From an uncultured Candidatus Actinomarina sp. (GTDB lineage Bacteria; Actinomycetota; Acidimicrobiia; Actinomarinales; Actinomarinaceae): 64,000 nucleotides of DNA. The stretch spans positions 19,827-83,826 of the forward strand of contig CACJPC010000003.1 of the NCBI GenBank assembly GCA_902595195.1, read 5' to 3'. This document shows, piece after piece, positions 22,180 to 38,786 of this stretch (position 1 is the first letter of the stretch; each line of letters begins with the position of its first letter). The notes beneath the pieces are model-generated. The model saw only the letters and a list, made by a program, of their open reading frames with translations. It searched no databases and was not told the DNA's origin. Position numbers and translations under genes: made by a program.

Positions 22180-23330
22180 TCCTTAAATGACCTACTTGTA
22201 TCAAAAGGATAATCGGAAGGCATGTGTCTTCTAAAACTATCTGAATTGCTTAATTCAATTAAATCATTAACGATAATCTCAGAGGAATTTCCTTCACCAA
22301 ATGGATTTTTCCAACCTTTTTTTAACTTGCTGACCTTATCAATAGTTTCAATAATATTTGCATGGTTAACCGTTGGATCAAATTTAATAGATGCTTTTAC
22401 ATCGTAAACTTCCGGTCTTTCAGTAGAATATCTCATTTGAACAGATGGAACATTTAATATGCAAGCTTCTTCAACTACTGTCCCAGAATCTGTAGCAACA
22501 AAATCTGATTTTATTAATAAGTGCATGAATTCAAGGTATCCAATTGGATCAATTATTTCTATATTATCATTAAGAGACATATCAGAATTATTAAGTATTT
22601 CTTGAGTTTTGTAACCCATTGGGAAAATAATGTTTCTATCGTCTATAGAATTTAACAACGAAATAATATTTTTAAAACTATCTTTATTTAATATATTCTC
22701 TCTTCTATGACATGTAACAAGAACAAAATTATCATTCGATAAATCAAGTACTTTATCATCCAAATATTGTGCACTAGATTCAAAAAGTTGTAAATTTTCA
22801 TTTATTATATCTACAATTGGATTGCCAGTTACTTTTATAACATTTTCACTAATGCCCTCATTTAAACCCTGTAATTTGTAACTTTCTAAATAGGCATATA
22901 TTCTATCTGATAAATGATCAATAATAGTTCTGTACTTCTCTTCAGGCATTCTCCAATCATAAGATCTCATGCAACCTTCTATATGTACCACAGGAATATT
23001 GTGCTGTGCTGCTGCAATTGACCCCATAACTGTATTTGTGTCTCCTAGAAAAACTGCTGCTTTATAACTATGATTTTCAAAATGGTTAAATAAATTCTCA
23101 ATTGTTGAAGAGACTATTGTTGAATCGTTAGATTTATTTACACTAAATTCAAAATTAGGCTTAGGTACATCAAGTTGATTAAAGAAAATATCTTTCATAT
23201 TTTCAGAATAATGTTGACCTGACCAAATAAAATCAAATTCAATTTGGTTTTGATTATCTAATAGTTTTAAAATTTTGCTTGCTCTAATTACATCAGGTCT
23301 AATGCCTAATACAATTGCTAAATCTTTCAT
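22176..23330 (-). CDS. UDP-N-acetylglucosamine 2-epimerase family protein (FnlC/CapG-like)
   Basis: GIRPDVIR, SGQHYSENMKDIFFNQL, HIEGCMRS and DSGTVVEE motifs of the epimerase_2 family. Confidence 0.8.
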   Translation of the reverse strand: MKDLAIVLGIRPDVIRASKILKLLDNQNQIEFDFIWSGQHYSENMKDIFFNQLDVPKPNFEFSVNKSNDSTIVSSTIENLFNHFENHSYKAAVFLGDTNTVMGSIAAAQHNIPVVHIEGCMRSYDWRMPEEKYRTIIDHLSDRIYAYLESYKLQGLNEGISENVIKVTGNPIVDIINENLQLFESSAQYLDDKVLDLSNDNFVLVTCHRRENILNKDSFKNIISLLNSIDDRNIIFPMGYKTQEILNNSDMSLNDNIEIIDPIGYLEFMHLLIKSDFVATDSGTVVEEACILNVPSVQMRYSTERPEVYDVKASIKFDPTVNHANIIETIDKVSKLKKGWKNPFGEGNSSEIIVNDLIELSNSDSFRRHMPSDYPFDTSRSFKE

Positions 23331-23331
23331 T

Positions 23332-24246
23332 CTAATTCATTATCCTATTAACAATTTCAGAATTTGCTAGTTCTTCTATATTTTCTTCAATCGAGGGAGT
23401 GTTATCATATCCAGCCATCTTCCATAGTTCTTCATTTTTTTCTATTTTTTTTGTCTTTAATGTTCTATCTATAAGCGTGTCTGAGTTTATATGATTAATA
23501 TTGATATCTTTATTAAAGTTTTTTTTGAATTCTTCTAATAATTGCCCTTTTGAAATAGTATTTTTTGGAATTAGATGTTGTGTTTTAAATGAAAAGTTAT
23601 GATTTTTAATCATTCCTTCAACGACCTTTGCAAAATTAAGTGTTGTTACGCCATTCCACATGTGATTTTGATAACCAGAAACCTCTTTTTCATCATTTTT
23701 TAAAAACCAATTCATAAGTGAAAATCCATTACCCTCTTCAGGTCCAATTATGCTTGATCTCACAATGTGTTTATTTTTACTCTCAATTTCACCAATGATT
23801 TTTGATTTACCATATAAATCTTTTGCATCCATAAAAGAATCCTCATAGTAACTTCCCGTATCTCCTGTGAATACACAATCTGTGCCAATCTGAATATAGT
23901 GAATATCTTTTTCTTCTGAAATTTGCTGTAAAATAATAGGCAAAAATGAATTCACTTGAATTGTATTTTTAACTGATTCAGCATCTTTTTCATTAATTTT
24001 TGGCTTTATTATTCCAATGCAATTTACAATATATCCAAACTTATCTTTTTTACTAATTAAATCATCAGCATCATTTGATAATGCATCATATTTTAAGTAA
24101 CTACCGTTGAAATTTTTTTCAATAAAGCTTGTTGATTTGCGCGATGTTACAGTTATTTCTAATTCTTTATTTGAATCTAGATAAAGAGACAACATTTTTC
24201 CCAGCATTCCATCTGCACCTAGAACTAGTACTTTGTTGTTATTCAT
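23332..24246 (-). CDS. SDR-family nucleotide-sugar reductase (RmlD / CapF-N-like)
   Basis: VLVLGADGMLGKM Rossmann motif and YGKSK catalytic pair. Start moved to the ATG at 24246 (MNNNKVLVLG), 4 nt after the upstream TAA. The listed start at 24324 would overlap the cupin gene by 86 nt. Confidence 0.7.
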   Translation of the reverse strand: MNNNKVLVLGADGMLGKMLSLYLDSNKELEITVTSRKSTSFIEKNFNGSYLKYDALSNDADDLISKKDKFGYIVNCIGIIKPKINEKDAESVKNTIQVNSFLPIILQQISEEKDIHYIQIGTDCVFTGDTGSYYEDSFMDAKDLYGKSKIIGEIESKNKHIVRSSIIGPEEGNGFSLMNWFLKNDEKEVSGYQNHMWNGVTTLNFAKVVEGMIKNHNFSFKTQHLIPKNTISKGQLLEEFKKNFNKDININHINSDTLIDRTLKTKKIEKNEELWKMAGYDNTPSIEENIEELANSEIVNRIMN

Positions 24247-24697
24247 AAATTTCCGGTGAATATTCATCCCATGGATTCCAATATTTAGAATCAAACCTAT
24301 AATCGTCTTCTTTTGACTCTTCAAGATTTAGAGATGAAAAATACATAACTTTGCTGTTAGGTTCTAAATTAATTGCACCGTTTGCAAATCCTGGAGGTAT
24401 AAATAATACACCTGAATGTTCATTCATTTCAGTTTTTAGGACTGTATTATTTTTATTTGGTGTAATCCAGTCGTCGATTTTTACTGTACATACCAAAAAC
24501 TTGCCTTTAAAAACTTTTACAAGTTTGGATTCTAATTTATGACCATGCCAAGCTCTTACCGTTCCGTTTTTTGGATTTGTAACTATATAAAATCTTTTAA
24601 ATTTTTCAAAATCAAGATTGTTGTAAAACTCTACTGAACCTCTGTTATCTTTGGCTTCGCCTTTGCTAATTAGGATTGGTTCAGATATATCTTTCAC
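24239..24697 (-). CDS. cupin-fold nucleotide-sugar epimerase/ketoisomerase (RmlC / FdtA / CapF-C-like)
   Basis: 152 aa. DNRGSVEF ... RAWHGHK ... jelly-roll pattern typical of sugar-nucleotide cupins. GTG start overlaps the upstream TAG by 1 nt. Confidence 0.6.
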   Translation of the reverse strand: MKDISEPILISKGEAKDNRGSVEFYNNLDFEKFKRFYIVTNPKNGTVRAWHGHKLESKLVKVFKGKFLVCTVKIDDWITPNKNNTVLKTEMNEHSGVLFIPPGFANGAINLEPNSKVMYFSSLNLEESKEDDYRFDSKYWNPWDEYSPEIYE

Positions 24698-25629
24698 TAT
24701 TCAATACCATATTTTTTTAAATAATTTTGGTTTGAGTAACGTATGTGATTTACATCTTTAATTCGATTGTTTGAAATTAAATCAAATACTTCTTGAATGC
24801 CAGATTTAAGATCCACTTCAGCTTTAAATCCTGTACTATTAAAAAGCTTTTGACTGGATACTTGATAATTTCTTGCATCTTGAAATTTCATAGGTGTTGT
24901 TTCAATTATCGCAGAAGGAACTTTCTGAATAATTTCATTAGCAATATCTATAATTTTAAAATTTTTATAGTGTAAATTAAAGATTCCTGTGACTCCATCT
25001 TCCAATGTATGATTTATAGCATTAGCAACATCGTTAACATGTAGAAGAGGTCTCCATTGCTCGCCTCCAAATACAGTTAGCTTTCCTTCTGTGAGCGCCT
25101 TAGTGACTAAAATATTTACAACCAAATCTAGTCTGATTCTAGAAAACTCATCACTAATTCCAAATAGTGTTCCAAGTCTAAATATTATTGCGTCTGAATT
25201 CTGCAAATACTCCTCTGCTTGCACTTTTGAAGATGCATACTCAGATAATGGGTTAATAGAAGATGTTTCATCAAGCATTCCATCTTGAGCACCATAAACT
25301 GAGCATGTTGACAAAAAAACTATTCTTTTTTTAAAATTTTCTGCCAAGAATTTAACTGATTCTGAGTTAATCTCAAATGTTAATTCAGGATTGATTGAAC
25401 AAGCGCCGTCTCCAACTAGAGCAGCTAACCATATAACAGCATCATTTTTATTTAAAACAGATAATAATTTATCTTTATCTCTGATGTCACCATATACAAA
25501 ATTTACGTCTTTTCGATAAGATTCTTCATAAATAAGTGAGTCGAAAACTGTAACATTGTGGTTCTCTTTAAGTTTGTCAACTATTCCACCGCCCACATAA
25601 CCGGCTCCACCTACAACCAAAACATTCAC
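24697..25629 (-). CDS. NAD-dependent epimerase/dehydratase (extended SDR)
   Basis: VVGGAGYVGG Rossmann motif, STCSVYG and YASSK catalytic motifs. Confidence 0.8.
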   Translation of the reverse strand: MNVLVVGGAGYVGGGIVDKLKENHNVTVFDSLIYEESYRKDVNFVYGDIRDKDKLLSVLNKNDAVIWLAALVGDGACSINPELTFEINSESVKFLAENFKKRIVFLSTCSVYGAQDGMLDETSSINPLSEYASSKVQAEEYLQNSDAIIFRLGTLFGISDEFSRIRLDLVVNILVTKALTEGKLTVFGGEQWRPLLHVNDVANAINHTLEDGVTGIFNLHYKNFKIIDIANEIIQKVPSAIIETTPMKFQDARNYQVSSQKLFNSTGFKAEVDLKSGIQEVFDLISNNRIKDVNHIRYSNQNYLKKYGIE

Positions 25630-25649
25630 TATCCAATATTAAATGCAAA

Positions 25650-26738
25650 CTAAACATTAATTGCATTTATATAAAATTTTTCAATTTTTTTGACAGTTTT
25701 ATCTATTGAGAAATTTTTCACAATTTTTTCTTTTTGTAATTTCTTAATGATTTTCAATTCTTTTTGATTATCTTTAAAATACTTTTCCAAAAGGCTTGCT
25801 ATTACTTTAGGATTGTCTCTATCAACCAGACAATGAGATATATTGGCTACAAATTCATTTAGAGGGCTTATGTTCGAACAAACAACAGCTACATTGTTTT
25901 CAATTGCTTCTAAAACTACTAAACCAAAACCTTCTGATTCTGATAAAAATAAGAATAAATCAATCTTTTCAAAAAATTTATCAATATTTGAAAAGTGATC
26001 ATATATTTCTACATTATCTTCAAGATCGTATTTTTTAATTAAATTTTTTATATTTTTTAAGTACCCTTCATCGTCTGAACCTGCAAGTTTTAAATTGAAT
26101 TCAACTCCTTCTTTCTTTAAAAAATGGGCTGTTTGAATAACTTTATCCCAACCTTTCCAGGGAAGCATTCTTGCAGCCATTCCAATAGAATTATTCATCA
26201 TATTTTTTTTATTTCTGTTTTTAATTTCTACACCATAGTGAATTACTTCAATATTTTCCTTATGAATACCTTTGTTTAAAATCAGCCACGATTTAATTTT
26301 GTCTGAAATTGCAATTACACCTTCAGAACTATTCAAAATATATTTCCATAGAAAATTTGTTAAATTATATTTAAGCTTGTTTTCGCCTTTTCTCGTCCCA
26401 TACTGAGCATGAACTGAAACAATATGCGAAAACTTTCTATTAAATTTATTTATAATTCCCACAACTATGTCTGATTTTGGTAAATGAGAATGAACTAATT
26501 TAAAATCATTTTTTTTTATAAACTTGTGTAAATAAAAGATGCTAAAAAAACTTCTTGCTGAAGTAATTTTGATATTTCCCAGATCGCTTATTATTGAGTC
26601 TCCTTTTTCATACATATCAAAAGTAAATAGTTCTACGTCTACATGTTTAAATTGTTTAAATATTTTAGAAAGTTGAACTTCCGCACCATCCCTTTTTAAA
26701 GTAGGAACAACATGCAAAATTTTAATTTTATTTTGCAT
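25650..26738 (-). CDS. glycosyltransferase family 4
   Basis: ILHVVPTLKRDGAE N-domain and the SESEGFGLVVLEAIENNVAVV E-x7-E motif. Confidence 0.8.
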   Translation of the reverse strand: MQNKIKILHVVPTLKRDGAEVQLSKIFKQFKHVDVELFTFDMYEKGDSIISDLGNIKITSARSFFSIFYLHKFIKKNDFKLVHSHLPKSDIVVGIINKFNRKFSHIVSVHAQYGTRKGENKLKYNLTNFLWKYILNSSEGVIAISDKIKSWLILNKGIHKENIEVIHYGVEIKNRNKKNMMNNSIGMAARMLPWKGWDKVIQTAHFLKKEGVEFNLKLAGSDDEGYLKNIKNLIKKYDLEDNVEIYDHFSNIDKFFEKIDLFLFLSESEGFGLVVLEAIENNVAVVCSNISPLNEFVANISHCLVDRDNPKVIASLLEKYFKDNQKELKIIKKLQKEKIVKNFSIDKTVKKIEKFYINAINV

Positions 26739-27912
26739 TTTCTTCTCTTCTTAATGATTCAAATAATAACAAAAAAAATAGAACTGATATTGAGTGGTTT
26801 TGTATAAAATCTCCTGTAAAAGACAGAGCCACAAAACAGCCTAAAAATAAATATTTTGAATCTAATAAATTGTTAGAAAATTTGCTAAAAAATATTTTCA
26901 ATGGTTTTATAAATATATTTAAAAACAAAAGTAATCCAATAAAGCCATAATTTAATATCAAAAACAAAAATGAATTATGAGGACCTGTGGGTCTTACATC
27001 GTCAGAAAAATTATCTATTGACCTTAGTTCATCTCTAACAATTCCAAAATTACCCTGTCCATATCCAATTAAATTTTCAGAAATGCTCTTATTCAAAATA
27101 TCTGAAATACTAGCGTCTTGCATTTCAATCCTGTCTCGAATTCCTTCAGTTTCATTTTCAGAGGTAAATCTATCAATTAAACCAAAATTTAAAGTTATTG
27201 ATAAAGATATTGCAAATACAAACAAACCAATAAAATCTTTATTAAATATTAAAACAAACAAGAGACTCAATAGGAGCACAAGGATTGAGGCCCTGCTGTA
27301 AGTAAAGAAGCAACCTAAAATTCCAATGAAAATAATAAGATATTTTTTAATATTTTCAAGACTGCTCACTGAATAGATTGTCAAGCAAGCAATTAATCCA
27401 CCGAAAGCATTGGGTCCTCCTGCTTGAAAGCCATTCATCCTGCCTGGAGTAAATAACCAGTCATTCTTATTAAATCCAATACTCCAATAGTCGTATGAAT
27501 CAATTCCGAGTTCTATTTCAAAAAAATAAAAGGAAATAGAAAATATTGATAAAAATATTGTTAGATAGAGATAAAAATTTTTGAGAAAGTTTAAATTTTC
27601 AATACTGATTATCGTGATCATTAACCCTAAATAGAATATGAATCTTAAGTTTTCACTAAAAATTAATTTTCCATTAAGTAAATAATTTTGAAAAGTTATA
27701 TAAAAAATAAACATTAATAAAGGTAAAAATTCTCTAATTTTAAAAATTTTAATTTTATTGTTATAAAGATTTATAGCAAAAAGTAATAAAAACAGAGCAA
27801 CAGGGATGTCATCAAATTGTAAATTGTTAGTGATAGTTAGATGAGGGGTTAATGGTATTAAAAATACACATAATATTTGTAATCTAATTACACTATCTTT
27901 ATTTTCAACCAT
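26728..27912 (-). CDS. O-antigen ligase/polymerase (Wzy_C)-like membrane protein
   Basis: 394 aa with ~10 TM segments. The YSRASILVLLL motif resembles the Wzy_C core. Confidence 0.6.
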   Translation of the reverse strand: MVENKDSVIRLQILCVFLIPLTPHLTITNNLQFDDIPVALFLLLFAINLYNNKIKIFKIREFLPLLMFIFYITFQNYLLNGKLIFSENLRFIFYLGLMITIISIENLNFLKNFYLYLTIFLSIFSISFYFFEIELGIDSYDYWSIGFNKNDWLFTPGRMNGFQAGGPNAFGGLIACLTIYSVSSLENIKKYLIIFIGILGCFFTYSRASILVLLLSLLFVLIFNKDFIGLFVFAISLSITLNFGLIDRFTSENETEGIRDRIEMQDASISDILNKSISENLIGYGQGNFGIVRDELRSIDNFSDDVRPTGPHNSFLFLILNYGFIGLLLFLNIFIKPLKIFFSKFSNNLLDSKYLFLGCFVALSFTGDFIQNHSISVLFFLLLFESLRREENAK

Positions 27913-28616
27913 CGTTTCATTCCATTTTTAACAAGATATAAAAAAGCTTCATAAACAATTTTTTTAGACATCTTAGAATTACCTAATCTTCTTTCGTTAA
28001 AGATTATAGGCACTTCTTTTATTGATAGTTGTTTTTGTACAGCTCTTGCTGACATCTCTACTTGAAATGCATACCCATCAGATTTAGTAGTTGCATAGCT
28101 TATTTCTAATAAAGCTTTATTCGAATAACACCTAAAGCCGCTTGTCATATCATTTATTTTTGTCTTTAATAAAAATTTTGATAATTTATTTGCAAAACTT
28201 GAAAGCATTTTTCTTCTTGTATCCCAACCAATACTCCCACCTTCTTCAATGTATCTACTTCCAATTATCATATCAGCAGAAGATGACGCTTCCAATATTT
28301 TTACTAAATCTTCGAATCTATGCGAAAAATCTGCATCCATTTCCAACAAATAGCTGTACCCTTTATCAAGACCCCATTTGAAACCATCTCTATAAGCAGA
28401 GCCAAGACCAAGCTTTTCGTTTCTTTTCATTAAATTAATTTTCTTGTTTATTTTTGTTATATCCTCAACGACCTTTCCTGTACCATCAGGAGAATTATCA
28501 TCAACTATTAAGACTGAAACATCAAAATTGGATATTTGAATTATAAATTCTTCTATGTTGTCAATTTCGTTATATGTTGGGATTACTACTAAGTGACTAT
28601 CTGAAGCGTATGACAA
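27888..28616 (-). CDS. polyprenol-phosphate mannose synthase (GT2, Ppm1/DPM1-like)
   Basis: VVIPTYNE, LIVDDNSPDGT and EMDADFSH motifs. 242 aa. Confidence 0.85.
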   Translation of the reverse strand: MSYASDSHLVVIPTYNEIDNIEEFIIQISNFDVSVLIVDDNSPDGTGKVVEDITKINKKINLMKRNEKLGLGSAYRDGFKWGLDKGYSYLLEMDADFSHRFEDLVKILEASSSADMIIGSRYIEEGGSIGWDTRRKMLSSFANKLSKFLLKTKINDMTSGFRCYSNKALLEISYATTKSDGYAFQVEMSARAVQKQLSIKEVPIIFNERRLGNSKMSKKIVYEAFLYLVKNGMKRWLKIKIV

Positions 28617-28621
28617 TTTAA

Positions 28622-30190
28622 TTAAGAACCATCGCCGTCTAAATCAACAGCATTGATTGTTGCATCTACACCAACAGCCTGTCCATCATTCTCCAAATCA
28701 AAAGACCATCTATGTTTAGGACATATTAGAAATCTTTCATCTTCTATTTGATGTGTTGTTAAATCACTCCCTTGATGAGGACAAAATTTATCAATTGAAT
28801 AAAGCACTCCTCCGGCTTCAACAGTTATTCTTTCTCTTTGATTTTGAAGACGCATCAAATTACTCACAAATTCTGGAACATCCTCTTTTTCCATAGTTAA
28901 AAATCCGTTTATTGCAACTTGATAAATATCAGGAGTTCTTTTTAATTTATGTCTAAAAGATAACATGAAGTCTTCCCAGTTCAAATGCCCATCTAAAAGT
29001 CTTCCGATGTCACCAACTGAACAGCTGATTTCATATGTAACATTTAATTCATTATTATTTTCTAAAATATCAATTTTCCTGCTGTCAAAATTTACATATA
29101 TAGAAGTTTCTGAAATTTCATCTAAAGAAAATTTCATTACTGCATCCATTTTTTGGTCTATGTTAAAATTACTAAGTTTTGAGGTAAGTTCATCAAAAAG
29201 ACGTCTCTGCGTTTCGATAGGATCATACTTAACTTTACTTTTTTCTCTTTCGTCAAAAATATAATCATATTCATCTGAATAAAGAGAAATATTATCTTTA
29301 TTGAACATTTCTGATACATCGTCTACAGGATGTGATATGTCAAGATTATCACCAGTGTATTCAAATGTACTACCAGGAACAGGGATTTCAACTTTTAAAT
29401 CGGGCATCTTGTCATTTAAGTAGTCTTTAAATTTGAAAGGGGACGAGAAAATATTAACTTCTTGATAATTTATATGTATTAAATTTGGATCTAAAAATAC
29501 AGGTGGGCCAGCAGCAGGTATGTAAAGATCGGGTTGAAATTTATTTATTAAGTTTTTAACAGAAGCGAATTTACCATAAACTTTAGATTCAGATATCTCA
29601 TTATACTTTTTTTCAGGATAGTCATAACATACAGGATGAAAAACTGCACCAGAAAACTGGCAAGTGAACACATTAAATTTTCCGAAAATTTCATAAAGTT
29701 CATCTACCCTATCATAAACTTTACAATCATTTAAATTCAAGAATGTGAAGTCTTTATCTTTATCTATTAATCCAATTGCGGAATCTCTCACAATTTCTTG
29801 ATCGTCTAAAAAAAGTCTTATTTCTAAATTACCAATTTCTACAATTTCAGAATCTATTGGTGTATTCACCGACTTCGGATTTAATTTCTTGAGGACCGAT
29901 GCAACATGATCTCTCCTGAATTTAGGTGTAATGAAGTTTATTTTTGACAATTCTAATGTTTTTAAAAAAGGAACATCAAAATGATCTTTATGTTCATGGC
30001 TTATATAGATGTATACTTCTTTATCAGTTTTAGAAATAGTTTCCCTAATTTCATCGCCTAATTTATGGTTAGAGGGAAATTGATACCATGATGAATCAAA
30101 TGCACCCTCTTTTGACATCCATGGATCCATTAAAATCATTTCAGTTTTTGATTCATACATGAAGCCTGCATGGCCCAAAAATTTAATCAT
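28622..30190 (-). CDS. two-domain oxygenase: N-terminal metallo-beta-lactamase fold + C-terminal Rieske [2Fe-2S] domain (NamH / CMP-Neu5Ac-hydroxylase-like)
   Basis: Exact HxHxDH motif (SHEHKDHFD) near residue 65. Exact Rieske motif C-x-H-x17-C-x-x-H (CPHQGSDLTTHQIEDERFLICPKH) near the C-terminus. Confidence 0.8.
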   Translation of the reverse strand: MIKFLGHAGFMYESKTEMILMDPWMSKEGAFDSSWYQFPSNHKLGDEIRETISKTDKEVYIYISHEHKDHFDVPFLKTLELSKINFITPKFRRDHVASVLKKLNPKSVNTPIDSEIVEIGNLEIRLFLDDQEIVRDSAIGLIDKDKDFTFLNLNDCKVYDRVDELYEIFGKFNVFTCQFSGAVFHPVCYDYPEKKYNEISESKVYGKFASVKNLINKFQPDLYIPAAGPPVFLDPNLIHINYQEVNIFSSPFKFKDYLNDKMPDLKVEIPVPGSTFEYTGDNLDISHPVDDVSEMFNKDNISLYSDEYDYIFDEREKSKVKYDPIETQRRLFDELTSKLSNFNIDQKMDAVMKFSLDEISETSIYVNFDSRKIDILENNNELNVTYEISCSVGDIGRLLDGHLNWEDFMLSFRHKLKRTPDIYQVAINGFLTMEKEDVPEFVSNLMRLQNQRERITVEAGGVLYSIDKFCPHQGSDLTTHQIEDERFLICPKHRWSFDLENDGQAVGVDATINAVDLDGDGS

Positions 30191-30293
30191 ACACTAAATA
30201 TTAATAGGTATAAGTTATATCAAATATTCAATTAAAAAGAAATATCTACACATATAAAAAATTCCAAATAATAAAGTTTAAAAGAGTTAAAAT

Positions 30294-31292
30294 TTGATAG
30301 TGAAAAAAATAATTGTCACCGGTTCATGTGGTTTTATTGGATACAACTTAATTAATTCGTTAAGTCATGTCGAAAACGTGATTGGAATAGACTCTCTTAA
30401 TAACGCTTATGACAATAACCTTAAGAAATTAAGGTTAGAAAACCTTAACAATCTTGAAAATTTTAAATATTTACAATTAAATTTTTCAGACAAAAATGAT
30501 TTACATAAAAATGAATCTATTTTTCACGATTGTGATGTCTTAATTCATTTAGGCGCTCGAGCGGGAGTAAGGCAAAGTTTTAATGATCCAGAAAAGTATT
30601 TAATGGATAATACACTTGGTACGATAAATTTATCATTACAAGTAAAAGAAAACAATATTCCTAAATTTATAATTGCGTCAACTTCATCAATTTATGGAGA
30701 TACAGGTGAACAATTAGCTGTCGAAAATAAAGATGAGCTTCTTTATCCACCATCAATTTATGCATCAACAAAATCATTCGGTGAAATTTTAGCTCAAAAT
30801 ATACTAGAAGATACAAATACTCACATTCAAATTCCTAGATTTTTTACAGTTTACGGTCCTTATGGAAGACCTGATATGTCAATTCTTAGATTTATACATT
30901 GGATTTGTAAAGGCGAAAAACTAATTCTTTATGGTGATGGTAATCAAAGGCGTTCTTTTACATATGTAGATGACATAGTTAATGGATTGATGGCGCTGAT
31001 GGAATACGAAGGTTCTGGTACTTTTAACTTTGGTTCCAACGAAACATGGTCGCTCAATGAAGTTATTGAGATTATTGAAATGAATACTGGGAAAAAAGCA
31101 GATATATCATTTGAAAAACGAGCTTATAAAGATGTTGACATTGTTCTTCCAAATCTAAAAAAATCAAATAATATTTTGAATTGGAAGCCTACAACAAACA
31201 TAAAAGACGGAATAATGAATACAGTTAATTGGTATTTAGCTAATCAAGAAAAGTTAAAAGATATTAAATTTAAATATGATTATGAAAAATAA
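30294..31292 (+). CDS. NAD-dependent epimerase (UDP-glucuronate 4-epimerase-like SDR)
   Basis: GSCGFIGYNL Rossmann motif, YASTK catalytic motif, and the DSLNNAYDNNLKKLRLENL segment typical of the UDP-GlcA 4-epimerase subgroup. TTG/GTG start. Confidence 0.7.
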   Translation: MIVKKIIVTGSCGFIGYNLINSLSHVENVIGIDSLNNAYDNNLKKLRLENLNNLENFKYLQLNFSDKNDLHKNESIFHDCDVLIHLGARAGVRQSFNDPEKYLMDNTLGTINLSLQVKENNIPKFIIASTSSIYGDTGEQLAVENKDELLYPPSIYASTKSFGEILAQNILEDTNTHIQIPRFFTVYGPYGRPDMSILRFIHWICKGEKLILYGDGNQRRSFTYVDDIVNGLMALMEYEGSGTFNFGSNETWSLNEVIEIIEMNTGKKADISFEKRAYKDVDIVLPNLKKSNNILNWKPTTNIKDGIMNTVNWYLANQEKLKDIKFKYDYEK

Positions 31293-32262
31293 TTTAAAAA
31301 AAGTAGTCATTACGGGTGGAGCAGGGTTCATCGGATCCAATTTAATTAGAAAATTAATTGAAAAAGATATAGAAAAAATTTTGGTGATTGATGATTTGTC
31401 TACAGGAAATATAGATAATATATCTGAATTTAAGGATAATAATTTAATTGAATTTGTAGAAAGTAGGGTTGAAGATTGTCAAAATCTAAATTCATTAATA
31501 GAAGGATATGATTTTTGTTTTCACTTGGCTGCTGGTGTAGGTGTTCAATACATTATGGAAAATGTTAGTAAGGCATTATTAACAAATATTGAAGGAACAC
31601 ATAAAATTATTGAATCATGTAAAGTAAATGGAATACCATTACTTTTGACTTCAACTTCTGAAGTTTATGGAGTTTCAGATGATCCAATTTGGACAGAAGA
31701 ATCGAAAAGTTTAATTGGCCCACCAACAAAATTAAGATGGTCATATGCTGCTTCAAAACTGATTGATGAATTTTTAGCACTTTCAGAATTTAACGATGGC
31801 AAATTAAATCCTATAATTGTTAGGTTGTTTAATATTATTGGAAATAATCAATTATCTAAATTTGGTATGGTAGTTCCAAAATTCATAGAAGCAGCTTTAG
31901 AAAACAAACCACTAATTATCCATGGAGATGGAACTCAAACAAGATCGTTTACTTGGGTTGGAGATGTTGTTAACTATTTTTATTTACTCGCGGAAAAGCA
32001 ACTTTATGGAGAAATTTTTAATATTGGACAAACTGAAGAAATTTCGATTAAAAATCTTGCAGAAATGATAATTAAGGAAACTGATTCAAAATCTGAAATT
32101 ATTTTTAAAACTCACAAAGAAGTTTATGGAGAAAGATTTGAGGATCCTATGCGAAGAACTCCTTCAATAAAAAAAATAGTCGATGCTACAGATTATTCTC
32201 CTACAATGACAATACCTGAAATGATAAAAGAAATTATAGATTACAAAAAACTAAATTCTTGA
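31276..32262 (+). CDS. extended SDR, ArnA-C / UXS-like UDP-glucuronate decarboxylase family
   Basis: GGAGFIGSNL, TSTSEVYG and LRWSYAASK (the RWxYxxSK pattern recalled from the ArnA-like subgroup). Confidence 0.65.
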   Translation: MIMKNNLKKVVITGGAGFIGSNLIRKLIEKDIEKILVIDDLSTGNIDNISEFKDNNLIEFVESRVEDCQNLNSLIEGYDFCFHLAAGVGVQYIMENVSKALLTNIEGTHKIIESCKVNGIPLLLTSTSEVYGVSDDPIWTEESKSLIGPPTKLRWSYAASKLIDEFLALSEFNDGKLNPIIVRLFNIIGNNQLSKFGMVVPKFIEAALENKPLIIHGDGTQTRSFTWVGDVVNYFYLLAEKQLYGEIFNIGQTEEISIKNLAEMIIKETDSKSEIIFKTHKEVYGERFEDPMRRTPSIKKIVDATDYSPTMTIPEMIKEIIDYKKLNS

Positions 32263-33395
32263 AAATATTAATAACTGTTGGAATTTATCCTCCAGATATC
32301 GGAGGGCCAGCGAGTTTTGTGCCAAAAATAGCCAAGATGCTTACTGAAAATAAACATGATGTAACGGTAATATGCCTCTCTGATAATAAAGTTTCAGATG
32401 ATGAAAATTTTAAGGTTAAAAGAATATTAAGAAATCAAAATTTGTTACTCAGATGGATTCAAACTATTTTTACAATAATCAAAAACGGTAGAAATGTAGA
32501 TTGTTTTTTTGTTAACGGCCTGCCTATGGAATCTTATGTGGCAAATCTATTTTTGAGAAAAAAATTAGTTAGAAAAATTGTAGGTGATTGGGCTTGGGAA
32601 AGAGGAAGAAATAAAGGACTTATCAACGAATCTTTTGATGAATTCCAAGAAAATTCTCATAATCTGCATCTTGAAATAGCAAAATTTTCTCGTGGATGGA
32701 CTGCAACTAAAGCTGATATCGTAATAACACCCTCAAAACATTTATCAAAAGTTGTTGAAAATTGGGGTGTCCAACCAAATAAATTAAAAATTATTTACAA
32801 CGGTACCAAGATAGTAACTGATAATATTTCAAAAACTAATAAAGGAATAGTAAATCTTATAACTGTAGGCAGATTAGCTCCGTGGAAAAATATTGATACA
32901 ATAATCAAGTCTGTAAATCTACTCAAACAATATGATATGAAATTTAAATTATTTATTGTTGGAAGTGGTCCCTTAGAATCTGAATTAAAAAAACTAGTTT
33001 CCGATTTAAATTTATCGTCAGAGGTTATCTTTACTGGTCAAAAAAAATATTCAGAATTAACTGAATATTATAAAAATTCAAATATTTACATACAAGCTTC
33101 TGGCTATGAAGGCCTTCCACATGTACTGCTAGAGGCAATAAACTTTGATTTATCAGTAATATCAACACCTATTGGTGGATCTAATGAAATATTGCAAGAT
33201 GGTAAAAATGGTTATGTTCTAAATTTAGAAAAAGGAAAAAAACCTAGCACTGAAAATTTAAAAAATATTATTTTGGAAACAATCAATAAAAAAGAATTGA
33301 CAGAAGATAAGAAAAAAAACGCAAAAATTTTACTCCATTCTATCTTTGATGAGAATAAAAATTTTCCAAAGTATCTAGAAATATTGACAAAATGA
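32259..33395 (+). CDS. glycosyltransferase family 4
   Basis: YEGLPHVLLEAINFDLSVISTPIGG E-x7-E motif and a typical N-domain. Confidence 0.8.
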   Translation: MKILITVGIYPPDIGGPASFVPKIAKMLTENKHDVTVICLSDNKVSDDENFKVKRILRNQNLLLRWIQTIFTIIKNGRNVDCFFVNGLPMESYVANLFLRKKLVRKIVGDWAWERGRNKGLINESFDEFQENSHNLHLEIAKFSRGWTATKADIVITPSKHLSKVVENWGVQPNKLKIIYNGTKIVTDNISKTNKGIVNLITVGRLAPWKNIDTIIKSVNLLKQYDMKFKLFIVGSGPLESELKKLVSDLNLSSEVIFTGQKKYSELTEYYKNSNIYIQASGYEGLPHVLLEAINFDLSVISTPIGGSNEILQDGKNGYVLNLEKGKKPSTENLKNIILETINKKELTEDKKKNAKILLHSIFDENKNFPKYLEILTK

Positions 33396-34516
33396 AAAAT
33401 TTATTATTTTACGGATCGACCAATTATGGTAAAAAACTGTCTAATTCAGATAATTTAAAGTTTATTGAACTAGATAAACATTTCAATACACATGTAATGA
33501 CTTTAGGGAATAACAGAGAAAATATTAAACACAATAATGTGCAAATATCTTATTTAAAAAAGCCAAAATTAATAATTTCACAATATTTATATTTTTATTT
33601 TTTTAATTTTAGAAATTTTAGAAAATATTGTTTTGAAAACAAAATTGATATCGTATCTGCAAAAGATCCCATTGCAGGATTTATCCCAGTTATGTATAAA
33701 AAAATCTATGACAATAATATAAAAATTATTATTGAACACCATGGTGATTTTTTAGACTTGTTGTTAAACCAAAGAAAATTTAACTTAAAATTCTTGATAA
33801 AAATAATCGCAAAAAGCATTTCAGAATTTACTTACAAAAATTGTGACTTTATACGTGGTGTAGAAAAAACATACACAGAGAAATTAGCAGATAAATACAA
33901 CAAAAACTACCACTACTTCCCTGCTTGGGTTGACTACACAATCTTTAAAAAAGAAAACTTAAATAGAAAAAATTTTTTGTTTATTGGAAATATCATTCCT
34001 CGCAAAGGTGTAGATTTTATAATTAAGAATTTCAATGACTTCTCCTTAAAAAATAATTTTAAAGAAAAGCTTTTAATTATAGGAGAAAATCAAAATTCTG
34101 ATTACTTTAATAAATGTATTGATTTTGTAAAACAAAATGAAATCAAAAATATTGAATTTTTGGGCAAGAAATCACAAGATGAAATTTCATACTTACTGTC
34201 ATCATCAAGATTGCTAATTATGGCTAGTAATTATGAAGGGTTGCCGAGAGTTTTAATTGAGAGCGGATTATGTGCAACTCCAAGTTTAGGGACAGACATT
34301 CAAGGAATTAAAGAGCCATTCGGCAGTGACGGAGGTACATTAATTTATCAACTTAATAATTCAGTTGAATTTAAATCACAATTAAAAATATTTGTTAATG
34401 ATAAAAATTTCGAGAATGAACTACAAAATAAAGCACACTCATTGGCAACTAAAATGTCGGGAGCAGATAGTTTTGGGGATAACTGGAATAGGTTAATTGA
34501 GTCATTATATGAGTAA
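33392..34516 (+). CDS. glycosyltransferase family 4
   Basis: NYEGLPRVLIESGLCATPSL E-x7-E motif. Confidence 0.75.
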   Translation: MKNLLFYGSTNYGKKLSNSDNLKFIELDKHFNTHVMTLGNNRENIKHNNVQISYLKKPKLIISQYLYFYFFNFRNFRKYCFENKIDIVSAKDPIAGFIPVMYKKIYDNNIKIIIEHHGDFLDLLLNQRKFNLKFLIKIIAKSISEFTYKNCDFIRGVEKTYTEKLADKYNKNYHYFPAWVDYTIFKKENLNRKNFLFIGNIIPRKGVDFIIKNFNDFSLKNNFKEKLLIIGENQNSDYFNKCIDFVKQNEIKNIEFLGKKSQDEISYLLSSSRLLIMASNYEGLPRVLIESGLCATPSLGTDIQGIKEPFGSDGGTLIYQLNNSVEFKSQLKIFVNDKNFENELQNKAHSLATKMSGADSFGDNWNRLIESLYE

Positions 34517-35540
34517 AAAACTTTTATATTTTAATCTTGCTTTAGATGAGAATGACACCTCTCTTGGTTTTGCAATTGATTGGATAAAAACTATAGCAAA
34601 AAATTATGATCATGTAGATGTAGTTACGTTAAAAAAAGTTTCTAATTTAAAGTTTCAAGAAAACATTAAAGTACATGGGGCTAAACCAAATAAATATAAA
34701 ATATACAAATATGTATACCTATTCAACAAAGTTAGAGAATTAACTAAAGAAAATACTTACGACAGATGCTTTTCACATATGTCCCCAATATCAATTTTAG
34801 TTAGTAGTTACTATTTGAAGAAAAATAAAATTAAATCGACGCTCTGGTTTACACACCCTGGTCCAAAATTTGGTATTAAAAAATTAATACTTTTTTTGAG
34901 TTTTCTTATTTCTGAAAATATTGTTACGGCTTCTACAACTTCGTTTCCTATTAAATCAAAAAAGGTGTCCGTCATAGGACACGCAGTAGATTTAGTAAAT
35001 TTTTCTAATAAAAAAGAAGAATACAAATTACATAATTTTTTAATACTTTCAAGAATTTCATCATCTAAAAACATTGAAATAGCAATTGATGGATTTTTAA
35101 ATTCAAAATTTAAAGATCGTAATCTTGACATAATTGGTGGACCGCTTAATAAAAATGATGAAGTTTACCTTGTTGAACTAATGAATAAATACTCTTCTAA
35201 TAATGTAAATTTTTTGGGAAAAATTAATCATGCAAATTTACCCGAGGTTTTAAAAAACTATGACGTTCATTTTAATTGTGCAGGTAATGGATTTTTTGAT
35301 AAATCCGTTCTTGAAACTCTCTCAAGTGAAATTATTAATTTTTATGTGAATGAAGATTTTAATTTGCTGTTTGATGATAATTCATATCAATTTAATGATT
35401 CTAAAGAATTAGCAAGAAAGTTAGATAATTTGATAAATTTATCTCATGAAGAAATTAAAAATACAATACATAAATCTAAAAAAGAATTACAAAATAACGC
35501 ATTAAGTTCTTTAAACAGCAGATTAGAACCTTATTTGTAA
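34497..35540 (+). CDS. probable glycosyltransferase (GT-B-like, divergent)
   Basis: Size, operon position after two GT4 genes and a weak GT-B-like layout. No clean motif. Confidence 0.4.
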   Translation: MSHYMSKKLLYFNLALDENDTSLGFAIDWIKTIAKNYDHVDVVTLKKVSNLKFQENIKVHGAKPNKYKIYKYVYLFNKVRELTKENTYDRCFSHMSPISILVSSYYLKKNKIKSTLWFTHPGPKFGIKKLILFLSFLISENIVTASTTSFPIKSKKVSVIGHAVDLVNFSNKKEEYKLHNFLILSRISSSKNIEIAIDGFLNSKFKDRNLDIIGGPLNKNDEVYLVELMNKYSSNNVNFLGKINHANLPEVLKNYDVHFNCAGNGFFDKSVLETLSSEIINFYVNEDFNLLFDDNSYQFNDSKELARKLDNLINLSHEEIKNTIHKSKKELQNNALSSLNSRLEPYL

Positions 35541-36466
35541 TTAGCAGAAATCCAGTCAATAGTTAATTTAAGTCCGTCTTCAAGTGAAGTTTTTGGTTTA
35601 TAATTTAATAATTCTTTTGCTTTAGTTAAATCAGGTTTTCTTTGTTTCGGATCGTTAATAGGAAGTTCATGGTACACAATTTTTGAATTAGAATTAGTCA
35701 ATTCTATAATTTTTTCTGCAAGATATTTAATTGTGACTTCGTTATCGTTGCCAATATTAAATACATCTGATTCTTCATGGTGAATAATTTTTAAGATTCC
35801 ATCTAAAGTATCTTCTATATACGAAAAAGATCTTGTTTGTTCACCATTTCCATAAATTGTTATTTCTTTACCTTTTAATGCTTGGTAAATAAAATTGGTG
35901 ACAACCCTTCCGTCATCTATTTGCATATTTGGTCCATAAGTGTTGAAAATTCTTGCAATACTACCATTTAAATTATGGGTTGTTATGTATGAATGAGTTG
36001 CAGATTCTGCAAATCGTTTAGATTCATCATACATACTCCTAGGCCCTAATGTGTTGACATTTCCCCAATACTCTTCGCTCTGTGGACTAATTTCTGGATC
36101 ACCATAAATTTCAGATGTAGAAGCTAAAAAGAATTTAGCATTGTGATGTTTACTTATTCCTAATGCATTAATAGTTCCAATGCTTCCTGACTTTAGTGTG
36201 TTGATAGGATACCTAGCATATGCTTTTGGACTTGCACAACTAGCTAAATGAACAACATAGTCAATCTTTTCATCAAAATAAATACTTTCCTGAATATCGT
36301 GTTCTACGAATTTAAAATTACTAAATTCTTTATATTTTTCTATATTTTTTAAATCACCAGTAATTAAGTTATCTATTACAGTAATCTGATTTGAATCATC
36401 TATTAATTGACCAATAAGATGAGAACCAATAAAACCTGCTCCGCCTGTTATTAAATAATTAATTAT
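35531..36466 (-). CDS. UDP-glucuronate decarboxylase (UXS-type extended SDR), full length with a non-canonical (ATA/ATT) start or read-through entry
   Basis: My manual translation shows the frame of the listed 167-aa ORF is open for 144 more codons up to 36466. That stretch encodes IINYLITGGAGFIGSHL..VVHLASCASP..LASTSEIYGDP.., followed by YDESK and NTYGP in the listed part. It contains no ATG/GTG/TTG/CTG. Confidence 0.75.
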   Translation of the reverse strand: MINYLITGGAGFIGSHLIGQLIDDSNQITVIDNLITGDLKNIEKYKEFSNFKFVEHDIQESIYFDEKIDYVVHLASCASPKAYARYPINTLKSGSIGTINALGISKHHNAKFFLASTSEIYGDPEISPQSEEYWGNVNTLGPRSMYDESKRFAESATHSYITTHNLNGSIARIFNTYGPNMQIDDGRVVTNFIYQALKGKEITIYGNGEQTRSFSYIEDTLDGILKIIHHEESDVFNIGNDNEVTIKYLAEKIIELTNSNSKIVYHELPINDPKQRKPDLTKAKELLNYKPKTSLEDGLKLTIDWISANYK

Positions 36467-37654
36467 TTACTCCCAAAATTTAATATATTCATACTCATTT
36501 AAGTTTCCAATTTCTTTTTCTATTTTTGTCTGAAATTTTTTATCAAGAGGATACATTTCAACAATTAATGATTTGTTTGGTAATTCAGAAATAAATTTAA
36601 TCGATTCATGGCTCTTAAAGTATTCATCATATACGAATACATTCCCATTATTAAGTTTATTGTACAAATCTATTGTCGGCGAATGCCTTAGGTCATCAGT
36701 ATTTTCCTTGAAAGCTAGGCCAATTAAAACTATGTTTATATAATTTTTCTCGACTTTTATTTTTTCTAGGTATTTTGCAAACCAACTTTTGTGTTGATTG
36801 TTTGATTTTAAAATTGATGAAATAAGCGGAACATCAAGCTCTTTCGATTTAGAAATCGATACGACTTCTGCTACATCTTTTGGGAAACAAGAACCACCCC
36901 AGCCAGGTGAAGGTCTGAAATACTCTAAACCTATTCTTTTATCCATACCTATTCCTTGTAAAGTTTGAGTCAAGTCACCACCTAGCTCTTTTATAATTTG
37001 GGAAGCTTCATTTACAAAAGAAAGTCTTAGTGGTAGATAAGCATTTGATAAATATTTTATTAATTGAGAACTGACTGGATCTGTAAAAATAACTTCTGAA
37101 TCTATTCCGGAATAAAGCTCGTAAACTTTTTTTGCATTCAATTCGTCTTTTGAACCTATTACAATTCTGTCAGGATTAAAAAAGTCACTAAATGCAGTAC
37201 CCTCGCGTAAAAATTCTGGATTAAAAATAAGGCTTTCTTCAGATAACTTACTTGATTTAATAACATCTGCTAAAGCTTCTGGATGGATTGTGGATTTTAT
37301 ACAAATGACTGTATCTTTATTAGACCTATCTTGTATTTCTTCAAAAACTTTATTTAAAAAACTTGTATCTACTTCATGAGTATCTAAAGATGGAGTCTGA
37401 ACGCAGACCATTATAACATCAACATTATCCCAAAAAATTTCATCATAATTATCACTGAATTTAACATTTTTGCCAACTACTTCATCATTTAAATATTCAT
37501 CTAATTTAGGTTCATAAAAAGGAGGTACTTTATTATTTAACTTCTTAATTTTTTCAGAATCAATATCTACAAATTGTACTTTGTGGTTTAAATGAGATAA
37601 TCCCAATCCAGTTATTAAACCAACGTATCCAACACCGATAACAACAATGTTCAT
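36467..37654 (-). CDS. ugd: UDP-glucose 6-dehydrogenase
   Basis: MNIVVIGVGYVGL Rossmann motif and GGSCFPKDV catalytic-Cys motif. I prefer the ATG at 37654 over the listed TTG at 37675. Confidence 0.9.
   Translation of the reverse strand: MNIVVIGVGYVGLITGLGLSHLNHKVQFVDIDSEKIKKLNNKVPPFYEPKLDEYLNDEVVGKNVKFSDNYDEIFWDNVDVIMVCVQTPSLDTHEVDTSFLNKVFEEIQDRSNKDTVICIKSTIHPEALADVIKSSKLSEESLIFNPEFLREGTAFSDFFNPDRIVIGSKDELNAKKVYELYSGIDSEVIFTDPVSSQLIKYLSNAYLPLRLSFVNEASQIIKELGGDLTQTLQGIGMDKRIGLEYFRPSPGWGGSCFPKDVAEVVSISKSKELDVPLISSILKSNNQHKSWFAKYLEKIKVEKNYINIVLIGLAFKENTDDLRHSPTIDLYNKLNNGNVFVYDEYFKSHESIKFISELPNKSLIVEMYPLDKKFQTKIEKEIGNLNEYEYIKFWE
36470..36474 (-). promoter_or_regulatory. Shine-Dalgarno-like GGGAG inside the last codons of ugd, 3 nt before ATA and 6 nt before ATT of the UXS frame
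   Basis: The minus strand reads TGGGAG TAA ATA ATT AAT. G-rich pentamers are rare in this AT-rich DNA. Confidence 0.4.
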
Positions 37655-37688
37655 AACTTGATGATAACGTTTCAATAACTTTATAATA

Positions 37689-38786
37689 ATGATAGTGATT
37701 TATTTTATTGCTCATTCTGAATGGATACTCCAAAGATCAAGAGCTGATATGGCAAGAAGTTTAAAATCTGATTTTAAAATTGTATCAATCTGTCCTGTGA
37801 GTGAATATGAAGCTAATTTAAAAGATGCCTACTATGAGTCAATTAATTGGAGTATTGACAGAACTAAATTGTTAGATATAAAAGGAATTTTAAAACTTAG
37901 GAAAATTATAAAGAATTTCAATTCTGGTGATATAGTTCATATTTTTACAATCAAATCTTTGTATCTCTTTATCTTTTCGTCATTATTTTTTAAAAAAGAT
38001 TTTAAAGTTATAGTATCAATTACTGGTTTAGGGTACCTATTTGCCGATACAATTTTGGCCAAAATTTTAAGAAATATAACTAGACCATTGATAAGGGTAA
38101 GAATAAATAGTTCGATAGATTATTTAATTTTTCAAAACAGAGACAATTTCCAAAAATTTGTTGATTACTCAAACTATAAAAATAATTCACAAATTATTTC
38201 AGGTAGTGGTTTGAACACAACAGAGTTTAATACTAAGAATACTTTTAACGAAAACATTAAAGTTATATTCGTTGGAAGACTTATGAGAGAAAAAGGAATT
38301 TATGAATATCTTGATATTGCAAATAGATTTAGAGATAAAGAAAACTTAACATTTTTTATTGCTGGAAAACCAGATTTTGGAAATAAAAGTAGCATAAGTG
38401 AGAGAGAATTCCATGAATTGCAAAATAATAAAAACATATCTTACTTAGGTGAAATAGATGTTCAAAAAGAATTAGCGAATTATGATCTACTACTCCAGCC
38501 AAGTTATCATGAAGGATTTTCTAGAATCCTAATAGAAAGTATATACGCAGGTGTTTATTGCTTAGCTAATAATATTTATGGAATGAAAGAAATTATTGAA
38601 AAGTCAAATTTTGGTATTCTAATAAATAACAATGATGTAAAAGAATTTGAAATCGAAATTAACAATTTTATGAAAAATAAGAATAATATAAGCTTTGATT
38701 CTGCTAGAAATATCATTAAAACCAATTACTCTTTAGAAGCAATTTCACAACAATTCAAAGAATTATATTATGAACTTACTGAATGA
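37689..38786 (+). CDS. glycosyltransferase family 4
   Basis: YHEGFSRILIESIYAGVYCLANNIYG E-x7-E motif. Confidence 0.8.
   Translation: MIVIYFIAHSEWILQRSRADMARSLKSDFKIVSICPVSEYEANLKDAYYESINWSIDRTKLLDIKGILKLRKIIKNFNSGDIVHIFTIKSLYLFIFSSLFFKKDFKVIVSITGLGYLFADTILAKILRNITRPLIRVRINSSIDYLIFQNRDNFQKFVDYSNYKNNSQIISGSGLNTTEFNTKNTFNENIKVIFVGRLMREKGIYEYLDIANRFRDKENLTFFIAGKPDFGNKSSISEREFHELQNNKNISYLGEIDVQKELANYDLLLQPSYHEGFSRILIESIYAGVYCLANNIYGMKEIIEKSNFGILINNNDVKEFEIEINNFMKNKNNISFDSARNIIKTNYSLEAISQQFKELYYELTE

Follow-up and report, generated by a model that had tools for sequence, protein, structure and literature searches.

A NamH-related metallo-beta-lactamase-fold/Rieske protein in the envelope-glycan island of Candidatus Actinomarina and its proposed role in N-acetyl hydroxylation of a nucleotide sugar

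Within a 64,000-nucleotide stretch of DNA from an uncultured Candidatus Actinomarina sp. (contig CACJPC010000003.1; hereafter the window, whose numbering is used throughout), the minus-strand gene at 28622..30190 encodes a 522-residue protein that joins an N-terminal metallo-beta-lactamase (MBL)-fold domain to a C-terminal Rieske [2Fe-2S] domain and heads an operon in an envelope-glycan island. The protein is placed by its sequence in an uncharacterised MBL-Rieske clade that spans many phyla; it is almost certainly homologous to NamH, the UDP-N-acetylmuramic acid (UDP-MurNAc) hydroxylase, and is judged not to be its orthologue. We propose, with a probability of about 0.5, that it is an O2-dependent hydroxylase converting the N-acetyl to the N-glycolyl group of a UDP-N-acetylhexosamine (UDP-HexNAc)-type precursor of a wall glycopolymer. 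[quoted passage not shown] The domain pair, the family, and the likely chemistry were already known; what is new is a distinct sister clade of NamH that had not been studied before, the conserved place of this gene inside the envelope-glycan locus of an abundant marine bacterium, and the similar glycan-operon contexts of its relatives in several phyla.

Domain organization and homology to NamH

The open reading frame (ORF) starts with ATG, and both domains were detected by Pfam above the family cut-offs. Lactamase_B_3 matched residues 2-127 (29810..30187, minus strand), the N-terminal part of the MBL-fold domain, with 27.1 bits against a cut-off of 24, and Rieske (PF00355) matched residues 446-510 (28661..28855, minus strand) with 36.1 bits against a cut-off of 20.3 (E 6e-9). 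As translated, the segment S64-H65-E66-H67-K68-D69-H70-F71-D72 (SHEHKDHFD) contains an exact HxHxDH metal-binding motif, H65-E-H67-K-D69-H70 (29981..29998, minus strand), and the Rieske ligand motif (28712..28783, minus strand) consists of C470-P-H472 and C490-P-K-H493, separated by the 17 residues QGSDLTTHQIEDERFLI. H65, H67, D69, H70, and the four Rieske ligands were invariant in alignments of 17 and 23 homologues from many phyla. Because the Pfam cut-offs were passed and these residues are invariant across phyla, the two motifs are not a chance pattern. An earlier note, made from the DNA letters, had reported a 522-residue ORF with exact HxHxDH and Rieske motifs, and both the translation and the Pfam matches bear this out. 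No NCBIfam model fits the protein, the best matches being sub-threshold ones to Rieske-core and generic metal-dependent hydrolase models.

The earlier note had likened the protein to NamH, put there at about 516 residues, and the comparison extends to the whole chain. In the literature, NamH has a UlaG (MBL) domain at its N-terminus and a Rieske domain at its C-terminus (PMC10050696). The mycobacterial proteins (Rv3818 and MSMEG_6412) thus have the same order of domains; NamH measures ~516-529 residues, can be aligned with the window protein from end to end, and also comes from Actinomycetota. BLASTP against Mycobacteriales NamH gave 22-25% identity over ~95% of the length (E 4e-34 and 4e-41), and hhalign returned a probability of 100% with an E of 3.5e-51 over 485 aligned columns. 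Fifty-one of the 72 positions that are invariant in 23 clade members had the same residue in five NamH proteins, and all the putative metal ligands were among them. Among these common positions are HxHxDH, D136/S137, N154/D155, Q178/S180, AGP227-229, FLD232-234, and the Rieske ligands, and with them the ND, QxSGA, and AGPPxFLD motifs. The clade-invariant residues E66, R93, R135, H185, K338, and D421 are replaced in NamH, which has L, V, G, and Y at the first four; these differences fit a different substrate.

The NamH sequences were obtained by tblastn from records filed as plasmids, some of which are really pieces of chromosomes (Tsukamurella tyrosinosolvens, Nocardia farcinica, and Rhodococcus ruber). 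The T. tyrosinosolvens gene (L082) adjoins glf, a HAD hydrolase gene, an acyltransferase gene, and serS, surroundings that we take to be those of Rv3818 on the Mycobacterium tuberculosis map, and its product is 72-78% identical to proteins of Nocardia, Rhodococcus, Gordonia, Williamsia, and Mycolicibacterium, several of which are named UDP-MurNAc hydroxylase. On the R. ruber conjugative plasmid pYYL1.1 (L083, 4745-8483), a NamH-clade gene lies between murB and a CHAP-domain gene, an arrangement that looks like a mobile peptidoglycan-modification cassette. The window gene, in contrast to both of these loci, stands in an operon of glycosyltransferase and HexNAc genes.

Several results separate the window protein from NamH. 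In a neighbor-joining tree, NamH formed a separate sister clade and the Actinomarina proteins a long branch of their own. The middle region of NamH proteins matched SCP2_Rv3818 (PF25451) at E values of 1e-44 to 1e-46; the window protein gave no match at an E limit of 1, three clade members gave none at 0.01, and hhalign aligned the region with low confidence. Because identity to NamH is 22-25%, versus 72-78% among the Mycobacteriales NamH proteins, because the clades are separate, and because SCP2_Rv3818 is not matched, we judge the protein not to be a NamH orthologue. The likeness proposed earlier thus stands as full-length homology and does not extend to orthology.

Beyond NamH, the protein search returned 493 relatives, with one marine group at 73-99% identity and one broad group of 516-525 residues at ~40% identity; the NCBI name of the latter is 'MBL fold metallo-hydrolase', and the JGI name for many of them is 'UDP-MurNAc hydroxylase'. 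Among 1.84 billion cluster representatives, 163 matched at E <1e-30 and 1436 at E <1e-3, with identity declining smoothly from 42% to ~25%. Given so few matches, the MBL-Rieske family is small. A genome scan with one genome per species, which relied on exact motif patterns and did not recover Mycobacteriales NamH, found the clade in 153 species. The closest relatives, at 77-95% identity, were from Candidatus Actinomarina single-cell genomes, in agreement with the marine picoplankton host surmised earlier; the G+C content of the window is ~29%. Other hosts are Myxococcus, Corallococcus, Acidobacteriota, Saprospiraceae and other Bacteroidota, Chloroflexota, Paenibacillus, Cohnella, Alicyclobacillus, a few Micromonospora, uncultured actinomycetes, and SAR324, among others. 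Uncharacterised members of the clade (Cohnella pontilimi, Chloroflexi, Myxococcus, and Acidobacteria) align with the window protein over the full length at ~35-42% identity and likewise contain HEHKDHF and QFSGAxxHP.

In Acidobacteriota and Dormiibacterota loci, paralogues of 450-492 residues adjoin the full-length homologue (L030, 7310-8698 and 16830-18182; L053, 7172-8560; L075, 7120-8487; L055, 12074-13552). The Rieske Cys and His residues were missing in the three that were aligned, and Pfam detected only the MBL domain in the L030 paralogue at 7310-8698. These Rieske-less proteins could be partner or alternative catalytic subunits.

An AlphaFold2 model built from the 17-sequence alignment (mean pLDDT 85.8, pTM 0.82) extends the MBL fold to about residue 245. 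The best Foldseek matches in the PDB (E 1e-9 to 3e-8) were FrsH (8A90, E 1.3e-9) and CmlA (4JO0 and 5KIK, about 2e-8), with UlaG-like and other MBL hydrolases ranked lower. A profile of the clade also retrieved FrsH first from the PDB (E 8.5e-7 over ~170 residues), with HEHKDHF aligned to HNHQDHF; the PDB searches with the single sequence and with the clade profile returned no NamH or CMAH structure, none of which appears to have been solved, and the single sequence gave only weak Rieske matches. CmlA and FrsH are diiron beta-hydroxylases that have the MBL fold, and their HxHxDH and downstream D motifs align with those of the window protein. They differ from it in that identity is 13-14%, the alignment is confined to the MBL part (~300 columns in the structural comparison, ~170 residues in that by profile), no Rieske domain is present, and the substrates are amino acids bound to carriers of non-ribosomal peptide synthetases (NRPS). 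Because the closest solved structures are diiron MBL-fold hydroxylases, the model supports an MBL domain that would house an O2-activating iron site fed by the Rieske cluster.

CMAH was compared through its published descriptions. It is listed among human MBL-fold genes and has been called distantly homologous to the bacterial genes for UDP-N-glycolylmuramic acid (UDP-MurNGc) formation. Like the window protein it combines Rieske and MBL-fold modules, and its reaction, from N-acetyl to N-glycolyl on a nucleotide sugar, is the one proposed here. The Rieske domain of CMAH is N-terminal (exons 2-4, nt 43-345 of the coding sequence), as the earlier note had stated, whereas that of the window protein is C-terminal. 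The substrate of CMAH is a CMP-sugar, whereas no NeuB, NeuA, or CMP-transferase gene was present among the annotated window genes.

Operon, island, and conservation in Actinomarina

The putative hydroxylase gene is the first of nine co-directional minus-strand genes (30190 down to 21007). A 5-nt gap separates its stop codon from the start of a family 2 glycosyltransferase gene (GT2; 27888..28616; Pfam Glycos_transf_2), the product of which resembles polyprenyl-phosphate sugar synthases, its best NCBIfam matches being AglJ and PpgS, far under the cut-offs. The downstream genes overlap or abut. They encode a Wzy_C (O-antigen ligase/polymerase-like) membrane protein (26728..27912; PF04932, 47.7 bits), a family 4 glycosyltransferase (GT4; 25650..26738), four sugar-nucleotide enzymes (22176..25629), and, as the final gene of the run, another GT4 (21007..22179), both GT4s being assigned by domain annotation. 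The four enzymes are a short-chain dehydrogenase/reductase (SDR) of the epimerase/dehydratase type (24697-25629), an RmlC-like cupin (24239-24697), an RmlD-like reductase (23332-24324), and the non-hydrolysing UDP-N-acetylglucosamine (UDP-GlcNAc) 2-epimerase WecB (22176-23330; NCBIfam wecB, 231.6 bits against a cut-off of 210), and they possibly form a 6-deoxy-HexNAc route. The Ppm1-like synthase, Wzy-like protein, and GT4 that had been described for this operon are recognizable in the GT2, the Wzy_C protein, and the GT4 downstream of the hydroxylase gene. On its other side, a divergent AT-rich intergenic region of 103 bp (30191..30293), the presumed promoter region, separates it from a plus-strand operon of two SDR dehydratase/epimerases and three GT4s by domain annotation (30294..35540). 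In DNA as AT-rich as this, a scan for promoters and terminators yielded no excess over shuffled sequence, and the promoter is not demonstrated.

The two operons belong to an envelope-glycan island of ~34 kb (9747..44033), bounded on the left by the phosphoenolpyruvate (PEP) carboxylase gene and on the right by tRNA-Met, tRNA-Asn, and dnaG. The island matches the published Actinomarinales flexible genomic island 1 (fGI1), which is described as low in G+C, tRNA-bounded, and composed of envelope polysaccharide genes; the fGI1 paper states the cell-wall composition of Actinomarinales as unknown. Three island genes with a WecB domain (the NCBIfam wecB model was applied to the one at 22176-23330, which exceeded its cut-off), two UDP-sugar dehydrogenases, and an AsnB-like amidotransferase agree with the earlier description of an island rich in HexNAc and HexNAc-uronate enzymes. 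Also present are several SDR dehydratase/epimerases, RmlC- and RmlD-like proteins, many GT4s, one GT2, Wzx, three Wzy_C proteins, Bac_transf, a WecA-like initiating transferase, a nucleotidyltransferase, and a LytR-CpsA-Psr (LCP) ligase (40549..41661, plus strand; PF03816, 93 bits). Enzymes of the LCP family couple glycopolymers to peptidoglycan.

Gene-by-gene tblastn comparison of 18480..40509, the span at whose ends the fetched loci stop and to which the synteny applies, revealed gene-for-gene synteny with five Actinomarina genomes (L001-L003, L005, and L006; 49-99% amino acid identity per gene) and with a more distant Actinomycetota metagenome-assembled genome (MAG; L007; 37-69%). Parts of the glycan block were found on three more contigs (L004, L014, and L071). 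Across the syntenic genomes the putative hydroxylase is 60-95% identical, compared with 52-95% for the GT2 and 40-92% for the Wzy_C protein; most GT4s are lower, and only a few SDR genes equal or exceed it in conservation. Since it is conserved above most of its neighbors, the hydroxylase gene is a constrained component of the locus, not a strain-specific passenger. The Actinomarina genome papers and their supplements contain no mention of it. The glycan island of Actinomarina has been called hypervariable (PMC7771536), and the ~21-kb syntenic block lies inside it; the island therefore has a conserved core module. Two of the contigs with parts of the block, at 50-80% amino acid identity, come from MAGs labelled Flavobacteriaceae (L004) and Cryomorphaceae (L071), and are probably mis-binned Actinomarina contigs.

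Proposed reaction and alternative explanations

The protein may be pictured as a NamH/CMAH-type monooxygenase that is self-contained and has two centres. A reductant from outside, for which no gene was found nearby, would reduce the C-terminal Rieske cluster, and the electrons would move on to a probably dinuclear iron site in the MBL-fold domain at the N-terminus, for which H65, H67, D69, H70, and conserved carboxylates are the putative ligands. This site would activate O2 and hydroxylate the methyl group of an N-acetyl substituent on a nucleotide sugar, giving the N-glycolyl sugar. By analogy, N-acetyl hydroxylation of a nucleotide sugar is probable, because NamH and the more distant CMAH share this chemistry and the clade lies nearer NamH than CMAH. 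The substrate would most likely be a UDP-HexNAc-type precursor made by the island and not UDP-MurNAc; candidates are UDP-GlcNAc, UDP-N-acetylmannosamine, their uronic acids, and 6-deoxy-HexNAc. Gene context points to a target among the precursors of non-peptidoglycan glycans, to which we give an even chance, and we favor such a precursor over UDP-MurNAc because of the conserved, tightly packed operon of glycosyltransferase and HexNAc genes, the separate clade, and the contrast with the NamH-type gene that adjoins murB. The N-glycolyl product would then be built into a wall-linked glycopolymer of the same operon, possibly, and more speculatively, by way of a polyprenyl-phosphate intermediate from the adjacent AglJ/PpgS-like GT2.

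Clade genes occur in glycan operons of Actinomarina, Acidobacteriota, Chloroflexota, Pseudomonadota, Bacillota, and other Actinomycetota. In a conservative phmmer count of 71 non-Actinomarina loci, at least two glycan-type genes lay within 6 kb of the homologue in 18, which represent at least six phyla; with one such gene as the minimum, the number was 38. Examples, partly picked for their likeness to the window and with neighboring ORFs in high-GC loci called using GC3, include a clade gene directly after WecC and WecB (L015 and L021), one with a Wzz-type tyrosine kinase on one side and a GT4 and WecB on the other (L010), one flanked by a GT4 and NeuB (L040), and one upstream of a Wzx flippase (L011). 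In L030, L053, L075, and L079 its partners are an SDR, an AsnB-like amidotransferase, and an MBL paralogue that lacks the Rieske domain; in L024, L028, L031, and L037 they are a processive GT2 synthase, a polysaccharide deacetylase, and an SDR; in L016 and L027, sulfotransferases and a GT4; and in L034 and the IMG/VR contig L084, a UDP-sugar dehydrogenase and an SDR. The only thread common to these partner genes is UDP-GlcNAc-derived chemistry. More tentatively, then, the clade at large might hydroxylate UDP-HexNAc precursors other than UDP-MurNAc, yielding N-glycolyl hexosamines or uronic acids in wall polysaccharides, capsules, and O-antigen-like polymers, a generalization that we hold with somewhat less than even confidence. 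The L084 homologue (5989-9949, with the dehydrogenase and SDR genes following it) was the sole match in the viral contig collection, at 32% identity, and the contig may represent either host DNA, a glycan island wrongly classed as viral, or a glycan cassette carried by a phage.

A number of observations weigh against the proposal. The association with glycan clusters is recurrent and real but far from universal, most homologues lying outside such clusters: 33 of the 71 loci had no glycan-type neighbor in the phmmer count, and an unbiased Pfam scan of 115 neighbors in 34 other loci gave 170 different families, with only ~3 members each for glycosyltransferases and epimerases. The recurring partners differ by locus, and therefore no single substrate emerges. 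In an Acidobacteriota MAG (L009, 7741-12331), the homologue is flanked by the genes of an NRPS-like adenylation-carrier didomain protein and of a 4'-phosphopantetheinyl transferase, which recalls the setting of the carrier-protein-dependent hydroxylases CmlA and FrsH. The electron donor is not encoded nearby, for neither a ferredoxin nor a reductase was found among the annotated window ORFs, as had been noted before; ~10 ORFs carry no annotation (mostly <250 residues, plus two of 445 and 418). In CMAH the electron donor is cytochrome b5. The presumed iron nuclearity is taken over from FrsH and CmlA, and the ligands beyond HxHxDH are likewise inferred; the function suggested for the clade draws on homology and gene context. 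Lastly, N-glycolyl sugars besides N-glycolylneuraminic acid (Neu5Gc) and MurNGc are essentially unreported in nature: reviews call N-glycolyl groups very rare and give only Neu5Gc in animals and MurNGc in some actinobacteria, and when a possible N-glycolyl legionaminic acid was described from Tannerella, it was called without precedent in bacteria. The N-glycolylated wall glycan that the earlier note envisaged thus gains from the operon and island and loses from the company that most homologues keep elsewhere.

The ordinary actinobacterial reading, peptidoglycan N-glycolylation, was not weighed in that note. It would make the protein the Actinomarina NamH, converting UDP-MurNAc to UDP-MurNGc for a peptidoglycan that is partly N-glycolylated as in Mycobacteriales and Micromonosporales, and would ascribe its position to the clustering of envelope genes. 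We consider this less likely than our proposal, but it is a serious contender and the most credible of the alternatives. Architecture, length, and 51 of the 72 invariant positions are common to the window protein and NamH, JGI labels clade members UDP-MurNAc hydroxylase, and the LCP ligase and other wall genes are also in the island. The reading keeps its weight because the host, an actinobacterium, belongs to the phylum in which NamH N-glycolylates peptidoglycan (a point that counts against our proposal), because namH homologues are scattered among actinobacteria (the literature reports them sporadically outside Corynebacteriales, sometimes without chemical evidence for MurNGc), and because many clade genes stand alone in unrelated contexts, like mycobacterial namH. 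No statement on the type of muramic acid acyl group in Acidimicrobiia was found in the literature. What speaks for another substrate is the 22-25% identity to NamH, versus >70% within Mycobacteriales NamH, together with the absent SCP2_Rv3818 match and the separate clade, the hosts of which are mainly Gram-negative or otherwise non-actinobacterial. In addition, the window gene is packed with glycosyltransferase and HexNAc genes and not with mur genes, in contrast to the plasmid-borne NamH-type gene beside murB. Finally, clade motifs were found in only two or three Micromonospora species, yet the whole genus has MurNGc, which suggests that the clade is not the MurNGc enzyme there.

A different chemistry would also be compatible with parts of the evidence: an MBL-fold iron hydroxylase could act on a sugar C-H bond, on another N-acyl group, or, much like CmlA and FrsH, on an intermediate attached to a carrier protein or a lipid. 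The nearest solved structures are indeed beta-hydroxylases of carrier-bound amino acids, the L009 homologue has its didomain and phosphopantetheinyl transferase, an ATP-grasp enzyme occurs in L050, several clade-invariant residues are unlike those of NamH, and the neighborhoods are highly diverse. NamH, however, is far closer than FrsH or CmlA (E 3.5e-51 over the full length versus 8.5e-7 over 170 residues), NamH and CMAH bracket the clade and share N-acetyl hydroxylation of nucleotide sugars, and no NRPS adenylation, carrier (thiolation), or condensation domain was present among the annotated window genes, so that we rate this possibility below that of an Actinomarina NamH. Hydrolysis, as implied by the automatic NCBI name 'MBL fold metallo-hydrolase' and by the UlaG-like and other MBL hydrolases among the lower fold matches, would reduce the Rieske domain to a redox sensor or structural module. 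It is very improbable and was rejected: the characterized homologue NamH is an O2-dependent hydroxylase according to the literature, the best structure and profile matches are oxygenases, and the four Rieske ligands are invariant family-wide, which fits obligatory electron transfer. Least likely of all is that the gene is in the island by chance and encodes an ordinary Rieske protein of the aromatic-ring-hydroxylating kind, either a non-haem iron oxygenase or a ferredoxin. The weak NCBIfam and PDB sequence matches are to Rieske ferredoxins and oxygenase alpha subunits, but they span only the 60-70-residue Rieske core, and those in NCBIfam reach 13-27 bits where the cut-offs are 106-781; no further domain follows the Rieske domain, no oxygenase catalytic domain was found, and the remainder is MBL-fold and homologous to NamH. 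Domain layout, sub-cut-off matches, and NamH homology effectively refute this candidate. Thus, the unrelated Rieske families that the earlier note had named as a possible outcome, with no similarity in the MBL part, were not what the searches returned, since the similarity to NamH spans that part.

If the proposed hydroxylation of a UDP-HexNAc other than UDP-MurNAc is correct, N-glycolyl sugars would comprise a third natural class beside Neu5Gc and MurNGc, carried by a very abundant bacterium of the surface ocean. A positive result on another UDP-HexNAc would be a modest but real surprise, and the sister clade of NamH in glycan operons of several phyla offers a testable case for bacterial N-glycolylation of other sugars. 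Should the protein instead be an ordinary UDP-MurNAc hydroxylase, the known range of N-glycolyl peptidoglycan would come to include Acidimicrobiia and perhaps Gram-negative phyla. Since the gene is conserved in an envelope-glycan locus that is thought to drive phage evasion, its function would inform the surface chemistry of Actinomarina, a very abundant marine bacterium.

Further features of the island

The three Wzy_C proteins of the island are encoded at 14287-15663, 26728-27912, and 41643-44033; one of them has 796 residues and adjoins the boundary tRNAs. Together with a heparinase II/III-like protein (15660-17279), they are unusual in a bacterium that, according to its description, probably has no outer membrane.

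Two gene starts also drew attention. An SDR reading frame at 35531-36463 (minus strand) is open for 311 residues, though the ORF list gives only a 167-residue fragment. Its TGGAGFIGS Rossmann motif lies 7 codons past the TAA stop of the upstream UDP-sugar dehydrogenase gene, and the frame opens with ATA-ATT and has no ATG, GTG, or TTG start. Because the orthologues start with ATG (L014, L005, and L007) or TTG (L002), we read the gene as probably intact with a non-canonical start. At the left end of the island, the TTG start of a WecC-like dehydrogenase gene (9747-11027) overlaps the start of the PEP carboxylase ORF (7301-9793) by 47 nt, and one of these two starts is probably mis-assigned.

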